This document shows positions 2,028-7,600 of a stretch of 7,600 nt of DNA, in pieces (within the stretch, counting starts at the first letter, position 1; the number at the start of each line of letters is the position of its first letter). Made by a program: the position numbers and the translations under genes. This stretch comes from a virus (taxonomy: Duplodnaviria > Heunggongvirae > Uroviricota > Caudoviricetes), in IMG/VR virus record IMGVR_UViG_2651869755_000012. The stretch is one strand, 5' to 3'. Below the pieces are notes generated by a model, which saw only the letters and a program-made list of their open reading frames with translations, ran no database searches and was not told the origin of the DNA.

Positions 2028-2678
2028 ATGAATGAAAATCAGTTAGCTCCTTGTTGGGAATTTCAACCTTATCTTGCTGAAAACTATGTTCGCCACTTGT
2101 TGGCGGAGATCGCTAACGTACTTGAGCAGCTGTACTATCATAAGCACGCATTAGACAGCAACTGGTCTGAAGGTGTAAGGGCTTATGATTGGGTCAGAAA
2201 TCATCTTATTCAAAATGAAGATGCAATTCCTGGCCTTGAGATGATTTCCAAGGGGTTGGACTATGTAGTTGCTTTAAATAAAGTTCCGCTACAATTTACC
2301 AAAGATTGCATTAATAACCCCAAAAAGAAACATCGTCTGCGTCGAAATAAAGTAGAGTATGAGCAGCTCTCATTGTTTGGTGATGTTGAGGCTGAGCAAG
2401 ATATTACATGGCGAGTCATAGCTGAGCCTTTTTTATCCGAAGAGGGCGATGGTGAATTAGAGTCCACACTGCCTCGTTGGGAGGTAGCTCTTGTTGGATT
2501 TAATACTTATGGTGCTCAGATTAGTATAGTTTCTCATCAATCTACAGCATCGATGCCGCTTATGCCTCTTGATTATAACACACTCCCTGACGAAGCGGAG
2601 ATTAATAAGGTGCCTCTTCGTCGGCGTACGAAGGATAAAGATTTGGATGTGAGCAGTGATGGAACATCAGGTGAATAA
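2028..2678 (+). CDS. Unknown-function protein (216 aa), first gene of a two-gene module with the downstream HTH-peptidase
   Basis: Long ORF in an AT-rich segment, ATG at 2028, stop TAA at 2676-2678 overlapping the next gene's start by 20 nt. Acidic protein with a basic patch (KKKHRLRRNK); no transmembrane segment or catalytic motif recognised. Confidence 0.6.
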   Translation: MNENQLAPCWEFQPYLAENYVRHLLAEIANVLEQLYYHKHALDSNWSEGVRAYDWVRNHLIQNEDAIPGLEMISKGLDYVVALNKVPLQFTKDCINNPKKKHRLRRNKVEYEQLSLFGDVEAEQDITWRVIAEPFLSEEGDGELESTLPRWEVALVGFNTYGAQISIVSHQSTASMPLMPLDYNTLPDEAEINKVPLRRRTKDKDLDVSSDGTSGE

Positions 2679-3762
2679 CTTCACTGAGTATCGGGGTGAT
2701 AAGCTCAAACTAGCGAGAATGGCTGTTGGGCTTTCTTGTGAAGAGTTAGCCGAAAAAATTGGCAAGACAAAGCAATTCGTTAGCAAACTGGAGAAGGGGT
2801 GCAGGCCATCGGAGCAATGTCTTGAGTTAATATCTTCAGCGCTTATGATTAAGTCCAGTTTTCTTTTTACTGAACGAAAATACGCTCTGGAAAGTGATGT
2901 CTGCCATTTTCGGAGTAAGAAGTCCAGGACTCAAACGCTGACTAATAGTGTATTGGCCAGGGCTGAGATTCTTAATATTATAATTTCTGCTGTTGAAGGT
3001 GAAATCGAATTTCCTGACGTTAACATACCGGAGCACCCAGGGGCTGAATTACTTACTCCGAATGATATTGAGCGAGTGGCAGAAGATTGTCGCCGTGCCT
3101 GGAATTTAGGTCTTGGCCCTATATCATCAATGGTTAAATTGGCGGAGAGTTTAGGGGTAATCGTTGCGCATGTTACGGGAGTCGATGATCGTGTTGATGC
3201 TTTTACTGTTCACAATAACAGGCCTGTTATCATCAGGAACAATGTTAAAAAAAGCATATGTAGATTTCGCTCTGATTTAGGTCATGAATTAGGGCATTTA
3301 GTAATGCATGAGGGCATAACGACAGGTGATAAACTTACGGAATCACAAGCCGATCACTTTTCGAGCGCCTTATTAGTTCCCAGGTTATCTTTCATTAAAG
3401 AATTTCCACGAATACGAGGTAAGCAATTCGACTGGAATGCTCTGGTTGAATTTAAACTTAGATGGAAAATCAGCCTTAAAATGTGTATTTATCGAGCCAG
3501 CGCATTAGGCTTATTGACCCAGGAACAGGCAAGAACTGGCTATATGCATCTTAATTCCAGAGGGTATACGAGAGTTGAACCTGGTGATGAACTTTTGCGC
3601 CCTGAAGAACCCGGCATGCTGGCCGAGGCGATTGAAATGCTGGATGATGCAACCTGGCTAAGAATTCTTATGAAAACTGGCTTGAGCCAAGATTTAATTC
3701 GTGAGTTGTTCTCCATCAACAGACCTATTACAAATCCAAGAAATATTTTCCAGATTGTTTGA
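2659..3762 (+). CDS. Fused XRE-family HTH / ImmA-IrrE (COG2856, M78-like) zinc metallopeptidase, 367 aa
   Basis: N-terminal XRE-type helix-turn-helix (LARMAVGLSCEELAEKIGKTKQFVSKLEKG) and a central HEXXH zinc site (HELGH at nt 3283-3297, within DLGHELGHLVMHEG), plus about 150 aa of C-terminal extension. ATG at 2659 (GTG at 2656 also possible); stop TGA 3760-3762. Confidence 0.8.
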   Translation: MEHQVNNFTEYRGDKLKLARMAVGLSCEELAEKIGKTKQFVSKLEKGCRPSEQCLELISSALMIKSSFLFTERKYALESDVCHFRSKKSRTQTLTNSVLARAEILNIIISAVEGEIEFPDVNIPEHPGAELLTPNDIERVAEDCRRAWNLGLGPISSMVKLAESLGVIVAHVTGVDDRVDAFTVHNNRPVIIRNNVKKSICRFRSDLGHELGHLVMHEGITTGDKLTESQADHFSSALLVPRLSFIKEFPRIRGKQFDWNALVEFKLRWKISLKMCIYRASALGLLTQEQARTGYMHLNSRGYTRVEPGDELLRPEEPGMLAEAIEMLDDATWLRILMKTGLSQDLIRELFSINRPITNPRNIFQIV

Positions 3763-5485: not shown

Positions 5486-5845
5486 ATGCTCATAGATTTG
5501 GTTTTACCTTACCCGCCGACGGTGAACACTTACTGGCGACGCCGTGGCAGCACATATTTTATCTCGGAGGAGGGAAAGCGTTATCGCCGGGCTGTGGCGC
5601 TTATTGTTCGCCAGCAGCGGCTGAAATTAAGCCTGTCCGGAAGGCTGGCGATAAAGGTGATTGCAGAGCCACCGGATAAGCGCCGCCGCGACCTGGACAA
5701 TATCCTGAAGGCACCACTGGATGCGCTGACGCATGCCGGACTACTTATAGACGACGAGCAGTTTGATGAAATCAATATTGTGCGCGGTCAGCTCGTTCCT
5801 GGTGGGCGGCTGGGGATAAAAATCACAGAACTGGAGTGCGCATGA
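5486..5845 (+). CDS. rusA: RusA Holliday-junction resolvase (crossover junction endodeoxyribonuclease)
   Basis: 119 aa; PYPPTVNTYW N-terminus and PDKRRRDLDNILKAPLDALTHAGLLIDD match the RusA active-site region (PDRRRRDLDN in DLP12 RusA as I recall). SD AAGAGGTGA at 5474-5482. Confidence 0.85.
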   Translation: MLIDLVLPYPPTVNTYWRRRGSTYFISEEGKRYRRAVALIVRQQRLKLSLSGRLAIKVIAEPPDKRRRDLDNILKAPLDALTHAGLLIDDEQFDEINIVRGQLVPGGRLGIKITELECA

Positions 5846-6531
5846 ATAACCAGTATTTACAGTTTGTGCGTGAGCAGCTCATTATCGCCACCGCTGATTT
5901 GAGTGGGGCAACAAAAGGTCAGCTTGAAGCCTGGCAGGAGAATGCCATGTTCGATACAGGGCGTTACAGGCGTAAAAAAATCCGGTACCGCGATGAAGTG
6001 ACCGGAAAAATGATAACGCGGGATAATCCACCAATCCCGGGAAAACAATCGCTGGCGAAGGGGACGTCAATTCCTCTGGTCAGTCAGGTTGCTTTTTCTA
6101 CATCATCATGGCGGCGGGCTGTTTTGTCTCTTGAAGAACATCATAAAGCCTGGTTGTTGTGGTGTTACAGCGGAAATACTTGCTGGGAGTATCAGATCGC
6201 GATAACGCAGTGGGCATGGACAGAATTTAAGACTCACTCTGGTACCAGGAAAATTGCAGGGAAGACACAGGAACGCCTGAAAAAATTAATCTGGCTGGCT
6301 GCACAGGATGTCAGGAGATGGGTTATAGGACATGATATCTACCAGCAACAGGAGCTTGCCCGTCTGTGTGGGATTAAGCCTGACAACTGGAGCCACAATT
6401 ATGTGAGCTACTGGCGTGAAATACTCGACATTTTTATGAACCTCGATACCGAATCTCTGATTTGCACTGTGAAAAGGAGATCTCAACAAAAAGCGGCATT
6501 TTTGCAGCGAGATATTGCAAAAGTCAATTAG
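5842..6531 (+). CDS. Putative Q-like late antiterminator (229 aa)
   Basis: ATG at 5842 overlaps the rusA stop (ATGA, 5842-5845). The gene sits directly downstream of rusA and directly upstream of an intergenic terminator, the canonical place for Q in lambdoid phages. Assignment is by position and size; no diagnostic motif was verified. Confidence 0.5.
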   Translation: MNNQYLQFVREQLIIATADLSGATKGQLEAWQENAMFDTGRYRRKKIRYRDEVTGKMITRDNPPIPGKQSLAKGTSIPLVSQVAFSTSSWRRAVLSLEEHHKAWLLWCYSGNTCWEYQIAITQWAWTEFKTHSGTRKIAGKTQERLKKLIWLAAQDVRRWVIGHDIYQQQELARLCGIKPDNWSHNYVSYWREILDIFMNLDTESLICTVKRRSQQKAAFLQRDIAKVN

Positions 6532-6578
6532 ATAGCATATATTTTATGTAAATGTGATATATTGCTGTAAAGTGTATA

Positions 6579-6605
6579 AACCCGCTCAAATGTGCGGGTT
6601 TTTTG
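6579..6605 (+). terminator. Rho-independent terminator (tR'-like) downstream of the Q-like gene
   Basis: CCCGC (6581-6585), 8-nt loop, GCGGG (6594-6598), then TTTTTT (6599-6604). An AT-rich promoter-like stretch at 6532-6580 precedes it, with a TATAAA-like hexamer at 6575-6580 (promoter not confidently resolved). Confidence 0.6.
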
Positions 6606-6677
6606 CTTAACTCTGTGGACCTTTTTATCTGTAGTTGTAATATATGGATATTGTTACAATTTAGGTCGGTGAGCTTA

Positions 6678-7355
6678 ATGGAAGAACAGCACGGTAATTA
6701 CTTTATAAAACGAATTCAGTTGATTGGAAGAGGGGCATTTGGCTTTGTTGAACACGTTAAGGTTTACAACCTCAATAAAGGTGAATGCGGGGATTATGCT
6801 AGAAAGGTTTTAGCACCCGAAAAACCAGAGCTTTTGGCGCAAATAGAGCAGTTTAGAAGGCGTTTTAAAAGGGAGGTTGTGTATCAATCACATTGCGTAC
6901 ATAGCAATATTGTTCCTATTTATTTGTGCGATTTGTTTGTTGAGAATCCATGGTTCATTATGGATAAAGCAGAATGTGATCTTGAGCACGAAATAACGAA
7001 CAACCTTCTTACAACAGATCAAAAAATTTCAATAGTGAAAATGGTATTAGATGGTGTAGCTTACATCCATGCCAAAGGCTATTTACACAGAGATATAAAA
7101 CCCTTTAATGTTTTGCGATTTAGCGACGGAACATACAAGGTGTCTGATTTTGGTCTGGTAAAAGATACGAATCCCGAAGGGGATACCACTAAATTGACCG
7201 AGATCGGTACCCGTATGGGAAGTACAAGATATATGGCTCCCGAGATTTTATATAATGCAGAGTATTCAGTTAAGACTGATGTTTATGCTGTGGGACGGTT
7301 AATTGAAGACTTAAATTTAGATGATAAAAAAATAAAGCCTATCATAGCTAAGTGA
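6678..7355 (+). CDS. Eukaryotic-like Ser/Thr protein kinase (Hanks-type), probably C-terminally truncated by IS insertion
   Basis: Gly-rich loop IGRGAFG (6723-6743), catalytic loop HRDIKPFN (7086-7109), DFG (7146-7154) and APE (7236-7244). ATG 6678 follows GGTGAG at 6668-6673; the track's TTG 6603 start lies inside the terminator. Only about 35 aa follow APE, and the stop TGA 7353-7355 is the first 3 bases of the IS terminal repeat. Confidence 0.75.
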   Translation: MEEQHGNYFIKRIQLIGRGAFGFVEHVKVYNLNKGECGDYARKVLAPEKPELLAQIEQFRRRFKREVVYQSHCVHSNIVPIYLCDLFVENPWFIMDKAECDLEHEITNNLLTTDQKISIVKMVLDGVAYIHAKGYLHRDIKPFNVLRFSDGTYKVSDFGLVKDTNPEGDTTKLTEIGTRMGSTRYMAPEILYNAEYSVKTDVYAVGRLIEDLNLDDKKIKPIIAK

Positions 7356-7600
7356 ACCGCCCCGGGTTTCCTGGAGAGTATTTTATCTGTGAACTCAGGC
7401 TGCCAGATCATCGTTTCCGATGGAAGCATAATAAGCTTTTTCTGCTTCTGCCGGAGGAGTATGGCCCAGCCTTTCCAGCAATCGTCGATTGTTATACCAG
7501 TCCACCCACGTGAGTGTGGCCAGTTCCACTTCTGCACGGTTTTTCCAGCTCTTACGGTGTATTACCTCCGCTTTGTAAAGACCATTGATGCTCTCCGCCA
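7353..7600 (-). mobile_element. Terminal part of an IS3-family insertion sequence (IS629/IS1203-like), extends beyond the window
   Basis: Terminal inverted repeat begins TGAACCGCCCCGGGTTTCCTGGAGAG at 7353; the minus strand encodes the C-terminus of an IS3-family transposase. I recall both as IS629-like. Confidence 0.8.
7395..7600 (-). CDS. IS3-family transposase OrfB, C-terminal fragment (5' end outside the window)
   Basis: Minus-strand translation ...AESINGLYKAEVIHRKSWKNRAEVELATLTWVDWYNNRRLLERLGHTPPAEAEKAYYASIGNDDLAA, stop (complement of 7395-7397). WVDWYNNRRL...LGH is the conserved C-terminal motif of IS3-family (DDE) transposases. This is a different frame from the track ORF 7283..7537. 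Confidence 0.8.
   Translation of the reverse strand, partial: AESINGLYKAEVIHRKSWKNRAEVELATLTWVDWYNNRRLLERLGHTPPAEAEKAYYASIGNDDLAA

Follow-up and report, generated by a model that had tools for sequence, protein, structure and literature searches.

The stretch of DNA analysed here (7,600 nt, hereafter the window) comes from a lambdoid prophage of Escherichia coli and covers its nin-to-late junction. Its forward strand carries the genes for QueH, a hok/sok locus, an RmrT/RmrA-like gene pair, and the genes for DUF968, RusA, the antiterminator Q and a protein kinase, and this report concerns the segment that leads from the end of Q into the kinase gene. Judging from sequence comparison, we consider it likely that positions 6515-6605 form the late switch of a Q82-type lambdoid prophage and that the DNA downstream is an imported cassette (moron) of a kinase gene and a PP2C phosphatase gene with a promoter of its own, which in the window is broken by an insertion sequence (IS). 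The Q-kinase segment was found at 99-100% identity in ~47 complete genomes among the 5,426 complete E. coli genomes compared, with the RefSeq labels “antitermination protein Q” and “serine/threonine-protein kinase”; carriers of the kinase amount to only ~50 of these 5,426 genomes.

The Q gene (5842-6531, + strand) encodes an antiterminator of the phage-82 family. Its product matches the Pfam model PF06323 with an E-value of 5.5e-84 over 216 of the 220 profile positions, and over its full length it is 67% identical to Q of phage 82 and 63% identical to Q of phage 434. An earlier, preliminary description of this DNA had called the gene Q-like, and both the profile match and the identity to phage 82 Q confirm that call. 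A sequence search of the PDB using the window Q returned no solved relative. The G+C content of the gene is 46.7% and that of the whole window 46.6%.

For the region downstream of Q a comparison set was assembled from 80 Q-related IMG/VR loci, phage 434, the phage 82 record and Hafnia prophages, and the sequences were aligned from the Q end onward; pattern counts were made on the 41 unique Q-downstream sequences. The set shares a common architecture, in which TTG[CA]AA within the last Q codons is followed by a 17-nt spacer and a T-A-n-n-n-T hexamer, then, ~12 nt past this -10 hexamer, by TGnTAnnnT, mostly with GCC directly after it, and finally by a hairpin with a T-run. The strict form of this late-module pattern was found in 40 of the 41 unique sequences, and the remaining one departs from it in a single detail. 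Phage 434, Hafnia and further genera show the pattern as well.

In the window the predicted -35 element of the late promoter PR' is TTGCAA (6515-6520, + strand), which lies inside the 3' end of Q. The hexamer TTG[CA]AA occurs in 40 of the 41 unique sequences and also in phage 82, phage 434 and the Hafnia prophages; since the phage 82 record ends with ...aatattgcaaaactggattaa, a -35 element inside Q is authentic for phage 82. The following 17-nt spacer (6521-6537, + strand) is near-identical among close Q alleles and differs in distant ones. In phage 82 the Q-binding element (QBE) has been placed between the -35 and -10 elements (PMC4914094), and by this placement 6521-6537 is the putative position of the Q-binding element in the window. 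The -10 element TATATT (6538-6543, + strand), with a predicted start at ~6550, belongs to the T-A-n-n-n-T type kept in 39 of 41 relatives, where it reads TACATT, TATGTT, TACGTT, TATATT or TATACT. Scored with a sigma70 position weight matrix (PWM), TTGCAA-17-TATATT is the fifth-best site among the 15,146 positions of the window.

Downstream of the predicted start lies a predicted sigma70-dependent pause element, TGaTATATT followed by GCT (6555-6566, + strand). With the A at 6550 taken as +1, TGaTATATT (6555-6563) spans +6 to +14, its -10-like hexamer +9 to +14 and the GCT triplet (6564-6566) +15 to +17, and the pause is predicted near 6574-6575. TGnTAnnnT is present in 40 of 41 relatives, the next triplet being GCC in 35 and GCT in three; the element of the relatives reads TGaTATTTT and then GCC. 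For phage 82 PR' an extended -10-like pause-inducing element, a GCC discriminator at +15-17 and a sigma70-dependent pause at +25 have been described (PMC5001585). The preliminary description had noted an AT-rich, promoter-like stretch after Q and likened the region to a PR'/tR' arrangement. Both statements hold: the G+C content of 6532-6577 is 21.7% as opposed to 46.6% for the window, PR' is conserved in 40 of 41 relatives, and the arrangement can now be refined to a phage-82-type module with a predicted sigma70-dependent pause element. What it had missed are the true -35 element of PR', which sits inside Q and thus outside the coordinates considered at the time, and the pause element at 6555-6563.

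Two further observations were made around PR'. A direct repeat, GAGATATTGC (6509-6518) and GATATATTGC (6556-6565), recurs at a distance of 47 nt, one copy overlapping the PR' -35 element and the other the pause element. On the - strand, inside the end of Q, a promoter-like TTGACT-18-AAAAAT with a preceding TG (6498-6527) has the fourth-best PWM score of the window; the phage 434 record annotates an antisense promoter, paQ, together with a CII site at the homologous place, and in the window the CII repeat is degenerate (TTGC-N6-TCGC).

The intrinsic terminator tR' follows at 6578-6604 (+ strand), with a stem formed by 6578-6585 and 6594-6601 and a T-run at 6599-6604. Its predicted fold has a dG of -13.0 kcal/mol and a z-score of -4.2, equalled by none of 200 shuffles, which bears out the strong terminator that had been proposed at 6581-6604. 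The stem sequences vary by lineage with the pairing intact (AAACCCGC/GCGGGTTT, AACTGCC/GGCGGTT, AACCACC/GGTGGTT and AGCCCAC/GTGGGCT): across 10 relatives 95% of the pair cells are standard and two pairs show compensatory changes, and shifting the partner by 1-3 columns lowers the pairing to 25-66%. In phage 434, too, a terminator is annotated at the corresponding place. A window scan with Rfam over the control region returned a single sub-threshold match, to the Leucine-leader family (6502-6604; 27 bits as against a gathering score of 50), which was rejected as driven by the terminator.

By homology, 6515-6605 is a Q82-type PR'/qut/tR' module, that is, a routine lambdoid late switch, and its mechanism can be outlined from the sequence homology to phage 82. 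RNA polymerase would initiate constitutively at PR', with the start at ~6550; the extended -10-like element (+6 to +14) would then be bound by sigma70 again, with a pause of the polymerase near +25. Without Q it would stop at the hairpin and U-tract of 6578-6604, freeing a predicted PR' leader RNA of ~55 nt. Q, once made, would bind between the promoter hexamers and load on the paused polymerase, leading to read-through of tR' and of later terminators into the late genes. A short PR'-tR' RNA is known to be made in lysogens of Shiga toxin (Stx) phages (PMC8065619), and by analogy such an RNA would be expected in lysogens of the window prophage too. As read from its sequence, the control region is textbook lambdoid biology and adds a further natural variant to the known promoter, pause and terminator arrangements of the phage-82 type.

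Just past the terminator, in agreement with the preliminary description, begins the gene of a Hanks-type Ser/Thr kinase (6678-7355, + strand; Pkinase E-value 2e-33), which is truncated in the window. A Shine-Dalgarno sequence, GGTGAG (6668-6673, + strand), can be read 4 nt before its ATG at 6678, and GTCGGTG[AG] is kept in Raoultella and in a divergent E. coli allele, L106. At 37.2%, the G+C content of the kinase gene is lower than that of Q (46.7%) and of the window (46.6%). Intact E. coli relatives have a kinase of 254 aa, whose gene overlaps by 4 nt with a PP2C phosphatase gene; the order there is Q, kinase, PP2C, a small ORF, a DNA methyltransferase gene (or its remnant), tRNA genes, an esterase gene and the holin gene.

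The homologs of the kinase were traced to their own contigs in order to compare their neighborhoods. The kinase-PP2C pair lies between a Q21-type Q (PF06530) and holin in Raoultella, between a lambda-type Q (PF03589) and holin in Yersinia pseudotuberculosis, and between a Q82-type Q and holin in Hafnia, while in Providencia it follows a lambda-type Q and a methyltransferase gene and precedes holin. In two Xenorhabdus loci the cassette is downstream of the lysis genes, and in Aeromonas caviae (locus L203, 3501-7783) it is outside any late operon. PP2C comes after the kinase in 45 of 46 further viral loci. In Stx phages it is stx that occupies the segment from Q to the lysis cassette, under the control of PR' (PMC8065619). 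Because the cassette sits between Q and the lysis genes in the E. coli relatives and occurs behind three unrelated Q families, it is well supported by this gene order that the kinase occupies the late-cargo slot, as stx does. This position had been proposed in the preliminary description, and the Q-to-holin placement behind Q82-, Q21- and Q-lambda-type antiterminators bears the proposal out.

In the two Xenorhabdus loci (L201 and L202) the cassette adjoins genes with Acb2/Tad1-hairpin and Tad2-like Pfam matches, both anti-defence families, upstream of position 3501. Its neighbors in A. caviae are umuDC-like genes, a Com zinc ribbon gene with a methyltransferase gene, an SRA/HNH McrA-like gene and AbiEii, which gives the locus the look of a defence island. 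A scan of a one-genome-per-species contig collection with the kinase found no close enterobacterial copies, the best matches being from Ferrimonas (50%) and Vibrio (43%), and it therefore contributed little on the conservation of the leader.

Within E. coli the cassette was found behind three Q alleles, which are 100%, 81% and 47% identical to the window Q. The allele with the 47% identical Q protein is L106, whose DNA is ~50% identical to the window through Q and PR' and then 83-90% identical from ~6578 through the kinase gene. Given this sharp identity boundary at ~6570-6578, the comparison indicates that in E. coli the terminator, leader and cassette have moved together, as a unit, between phages with different Q genes. 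Q alleles that are 82-88% identical to the window Q are without the kinase, and their homology to the window ends at ~6565. The cassette also has a terminator at its far end: a hairpin with a T-run was found 8-96 nt after PP2C in eight of eight lineages (in E. coli with a dG of -19.3 and a z-score of -5.4), and it is out of view in the window owing to the IS. Low G+C content, a terminator of its own and a conserved promoter-like motif together give the cassette a moron-like anatomy, as known for the late regions of Stx phages (PMC8065619).

The promoter-like motif emerged when the sequence preceding the kinase start was scored, lineage by lineage, with a promoter PWM derived from textbook frequencies of sigma70 hexamers. 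The predicted cassette promoter of the window (6616-6643, + strand) consists of TGGACC (6616-6621), a 16-nt spacer and TAATAT (6638-6643), with a predicted start at ~6650 and 34 nt between the end of the -10 element and the start codon. The corresponding sites, each with its distance to the start codon in parentheses, are TGGACC-16-TAAGAT in a second E. coli allele, L103 (34 nt), TAGACC-16-TAAGAT in L106 (32 nt), TGGATC-17-TAAAAT in Raoultella (33 nt), TGGACG-17-TATGCT in Yersinia (35 nt), TAGACT-17-TATCAT in Hafnia (36 nt) and TAGACT-17-TAAATT in Providencia (33 nt). A positional profile was calculated from 35 kinase-upstream regions filtered to <70% identity, using the mean of the best PWM score in 5-nt windows. 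It peaks 32-36 nt before the start codon at 2.95, as opposed to 1.05 +/- 0.36 in shuffles (0 of 500 as high), and away from this peak it runs between -1 and 1. Among the 38 unique kinase-upstream regions 20 reach a PWM score of >=4, and in all 20 the second block begins with TA and has T as its sixth base; their spacers are 16-18 nt long and free in sequence, the consensus being tcaT[AG]GAC-17-ttgTAAnnT. The motif is present whatever genes lie upstream. Between the window and L106 only 4 of 36 sites differ in 6606-6640, compared with 44% of the four-fold degenerate sites of the kinase gene. The predicted RNA fold of the leader (6606-6690) is unremarkable (z-score -0.29), with no sign of a structured leader or of a repeat hairpin. 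The locus of E. coli STEC388 was set aside as evidence for promoter conservation; its differing upstream sequence results from an IS1-mediated deletion that ends 11 nt before the ATG.

Taken together, the cassette seems to have its own weak sigma70-type promoter at 6616-6643, which would start transcripts at ~6650 with a leader of ~27 nt. That the kinase might have a promoter of its own alongside Q-driven read-through, as the preliminary description suggested, is plausible; the site it named (6632-6660) is not the conserved one, and the conserved motif lies 16-17 nt upstream of it. In the proposed arrangement the imported two-gene cassette would start ten bases past the terminator, with its weak promoter in front and its own terminator after the phosphatase gene. 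In an intact prophage it would be expressed at a low level in the lysogen and then, upon induction, be swept into Q-dependent late transcription, following a logic like that of stx.

Several points weigh against this combined reading of a phage-82-type late switch and a cassette promoter. The cassette promoter is weak, with 8 of 12 matches to the sigma70 consensus and a score reached by ~0.3% of window positions, and it was recognised post hoc. The compared upstream regions share descent, so that the shuffle test overstates their independence, and the motif stands out in just 20 of the 38 unique upstream regions, roughly half. That the window and L106 diverge so little over 6606-6640 could be due to recent recombination instead of constraint, as the identity jumps at ~6578. 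As for the switch itself, tR' has just six U, three of which are able to pair with the stem; the phage 82 record (X92588) stops at the Q stop codon, and the likeness to phage 82 rests on textual descriptions, on phage 434 and on other relatives; and the window departs from phage 82 in its triplet (GCT for GCC) and in an additional base ahead of the expected pause.

The weakness of the motif and its patchy occurrence would also favour a cassette without a promoter of its own, transcribed only through the Q-dependent late operon and leakage past tR'. In most lineages the cassette does belong to the late transcription unit and would not strictly require a promoter there, and the motif T(A/G)GAC-17-TAAnnT might instead be a protein-binding site, a signal for mRNA processing or stability, or a preferred joint of recombination. 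We consider this alternative unlikely, however. The two blocks keep the geometry of a promoter, with the 16-18 nt spacer unconstrained in sequence and the TA and final T of the second block invariant in the 20 scoring regions; they stand at a constant 32-36 nt from the start codon in cassettes preceded by very different genes; and the Aeromonas cassette, outside a late operon, must be expressed somehow, while the cassette carries its own terminator.

The promoter named in the preliminary description consists of TAGTTG (6632-6637), a 17-nt spacer and TACAAT (6655-6660) on the + strand, and an inverted repeat, TTGTAA (6635-6640) and TTACAA (6654-6659; its end coordinate had been given one base short), was thought to be a possible operator. 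Under this version the kinase would be driven by TAGTTG/TACAAT and a repressor would bind the repeat at 6635-6659. The letters are present: TACAAT matches the consensus at 5 of 6 positions, is preceded by TGt (the TG at 6652-6653 gives it the look of an extended -10 element in the window allele) and has the second-best intergenic PWM score (7.73). TAGTTG, however, agrees with TTGACA in only two of its six bases, and the complete site scores at the 0.24% level among window positions, with ~36 equally good sites, a frequency expected by chance. It is not conserved either: L103 is without the TG (TCt), L106 has a 2-nt deletion in the spacer and TACATT, Raoultella, Yersinia, Hafnia and Providencia have nothing equivalent, and at 15-19 nt the positional profile shows no rise. 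Between the window and L106 no part of the leader has diverged more than the segment 6641-6662, where TACAAT, the right arm of the repeat and the 2-nt deletion are located. A start ~7 nt after 6660 would, moreover, land at or inside the Shine-Dalgarno sequence (6668-6673).

The repeat fares no better. A perfect 6-bp inverted repeat with a loop of 3-20 nt occurs in 17% of shuffles of 6606-6677 and 0.5 times per 72 nt across the window, the right arm is broken in L106, the left arm coincides in part with the conserved ttgTAA at the predicted -10 element (6638-6643), and the leader, as noted above, shows no unusual fold. The promoter and the inverted repeat of 6632-6660 are therefore probably not functional elements as judged by conservation and chance frequency, and transcription of the kinase from this site under a repressor is highly improbable.

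The kinase gene of the window is interrupted by the end of an IS3-family insertion sequence (7353-7600, - strand), which the preliminary description had missed. The IS end is 100% identical over 249 nt, in inverted orientation, to the end of an element annotated as IS3 family transposase in locus L002 (17546-17298) of another E. coli genome. It cuts the kinase ORF at 7352/7353, so that 225 of 254 codons are kept and a TGA stop is supplied by the IS terminus; the lost tail of 29 codons holds R234 and Y235, both unchanged throughout 20 aligned homologs. The PP2C gene is absent from the window. Because the IS cuts off the last 29 kinase codons and separates or removes the phosphatase gene, the kinase-PP2C cassette is probably inactive in the window, as far as its sequence tells. 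None of the 5,426 complete E. coli genomes has the insertion at 7352/7353, the best coverage stopping at 7354-7357. Two IMG/VR contigs considered as carriers of the same insertion were rejected, as their IS fragment is located at the contig end ~2 kb upstream of Q. Other insertions were seen at related loci: in E. coli STEC388 (L188, 4289-5012) Q and the entire control region have been replaced by an IS1 whose end lies 11 nt upstream of the kinase ATG, and in another genome (match H160) an IS1 lies inside the kinase gene. From these sequences the cassette seems to be a frequent target of IS elements.

The truncation, with its loss of the invariant R234 and Y235, raises the question whether the whole region is a relic here, with a defective prophage or a Q that is never expressed, a kinase pseudogene, and elements that are recognisable and have no present function. 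Related prophages in complete genomes are often decayed (truncated methyltransferase gene, IS66 and IS3 insertions, a split lysozyme gene, missing structural genes), which would fit such a state. On the other hand Q, RusA, DUF968, the promoter, the pause element and the terminator are all intact in the window and 100% identical to copies in many genomes, and PR' is constitutive in lambdoid lysogens regardless of the viability of the prophage (PMC8065619). A relic is thus possible, on the doubtful side, and it would bear on the present activity of the region and not on the identity of its elements as a Q82-type late switch followed by an imported cassette.

The comparison yields precise coordinates for both predicted promoters, and experiments might be most worthwhile on the recurring kinase-phosphatase moron. 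At the head of the late operon the pair turns up repeatedly, in Escherichia, Raoultella, Yersinia, Hafnia and Providencia prophages, each time accompanied by its own promoter-like and terminator signals. Were lysogens to express it, host or phage proteins could become its substrates, with effects on defence or induction of the kind shown for the unrelated KKP (kinase-kinase-phosphatase) module. In the literature searched we found no paper that describes a kinase-PP2C cassette in lambdoid late regions, and a paper comparing the pR' regions of Stx phages is silent on such a cassette. As a tentative proposal, the short kinase with its PP2C partner may represent a common type of phospho-signalling moron in lambdoid prophages that has escaped description, equipped with its own promoter and terminator and established several times between Q and the lysis genes behind the three unrelated antiterminator families, perhaps resembling KKP in being a kinase toxin held in check by a phosphatase, which would be low in lysogens and boosted by Q late, and which would block superinfection or tune the decision between lysis and lysogeny.

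The upstream part of the window contains further genes of the prophage. A homolog of the epoxyqueuosine reductase QueH (783-1469; Pfam E-value 1e-65) lies in the early-right region. It is followed by a hok/sok type I toxin-antitoxin locus (1537-1862), in which the sok RNA scores 120 bits in Rfam and a hokD-like ORF spans 1650-1862. Two overlapping genes (2028-3762) match the PADLOC models RmrT (E-value 5e-25) and RmrA (E-value 6e-105), the RmrA-like gene having helix-turn-helix (HTH) and IrrE/M78 peptidase domains; by these matches the pair is a candidate anti-phage toxin-antitoxin pair within the nin region of the prophage. The RusA gene (5486-5845, + strand) precedes Q.

In comparison with known systems, the late region of phage 82 is similar in its Q family (67% identity), in the -35 element TTGCAA within the last Q codons and in the 17-nt spacer at the place of the QBE. 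Phage 82 PR' also shares the extended -10-like element at about +6 to +14, the triplet at +15-17 and the terminator after them (PMC5001585, PMC4914094). The window differs from phages 82 and 434 in the sequence of the spacer at the QBE position, and its triplet is GCT and not GCC as in phage 82. Its terminator follows almost immediately, at about +29, like those of phage 434 and Hafnia, while the closest alleles without the kinase have ~19 extra nt before the terminator.

With stx and other late morons the cassette shares its nature as an imported block between Q and the lysis cassette, which would be transcribed by Q-modified polymerase from PR', with deviant base composition and with promoter-like and terminator signals of its own (PMC8065619). 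It differs in its cargo, a kinase-phosphatase pair in place of a toxin, and in its location upstream of the tRNA genes and directly after tR': in Stx phages tRNA genes precede stx, whereas in the E. coli relatives of the window they follow the cassette. In addition, stx1 is regulated by Fur, and no such regulator is indicated for the cassette.

Among kinase systems, KKP of Pf and other prophages likewise pairs prophage-borne Hanks-type Ser/Thr kinases with a PP2C phosphatase, and it controls prophage activity and provides an anti-phage defence of the toxin/antitoxin type (PMC11341870). KKP has the order PP2C-kinase-kinase, with kinases of 300-430 aa that carry CSD or FHA domains, and is found in another type of phage and at another genomic position, whereas the cassette has a single bare-domain kinase of 254 aa followed by PP2C; gene order, gene number and domain content thus rule out that it is a KKP module. 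In PADLOC the kinase domain matches PD-T4-6 with E-values down to 1e-34 and Stk2 with 1e-27. These matches cover ~200 of 292-547 profile positions and only the kinase-domain part, and the cassette kinase has no extra domain and is always paired with a phosphatase. A full-length stand-alone PD-T4-6 was ruled out for it, the best match covering positions 11-201 of a profile of 327.

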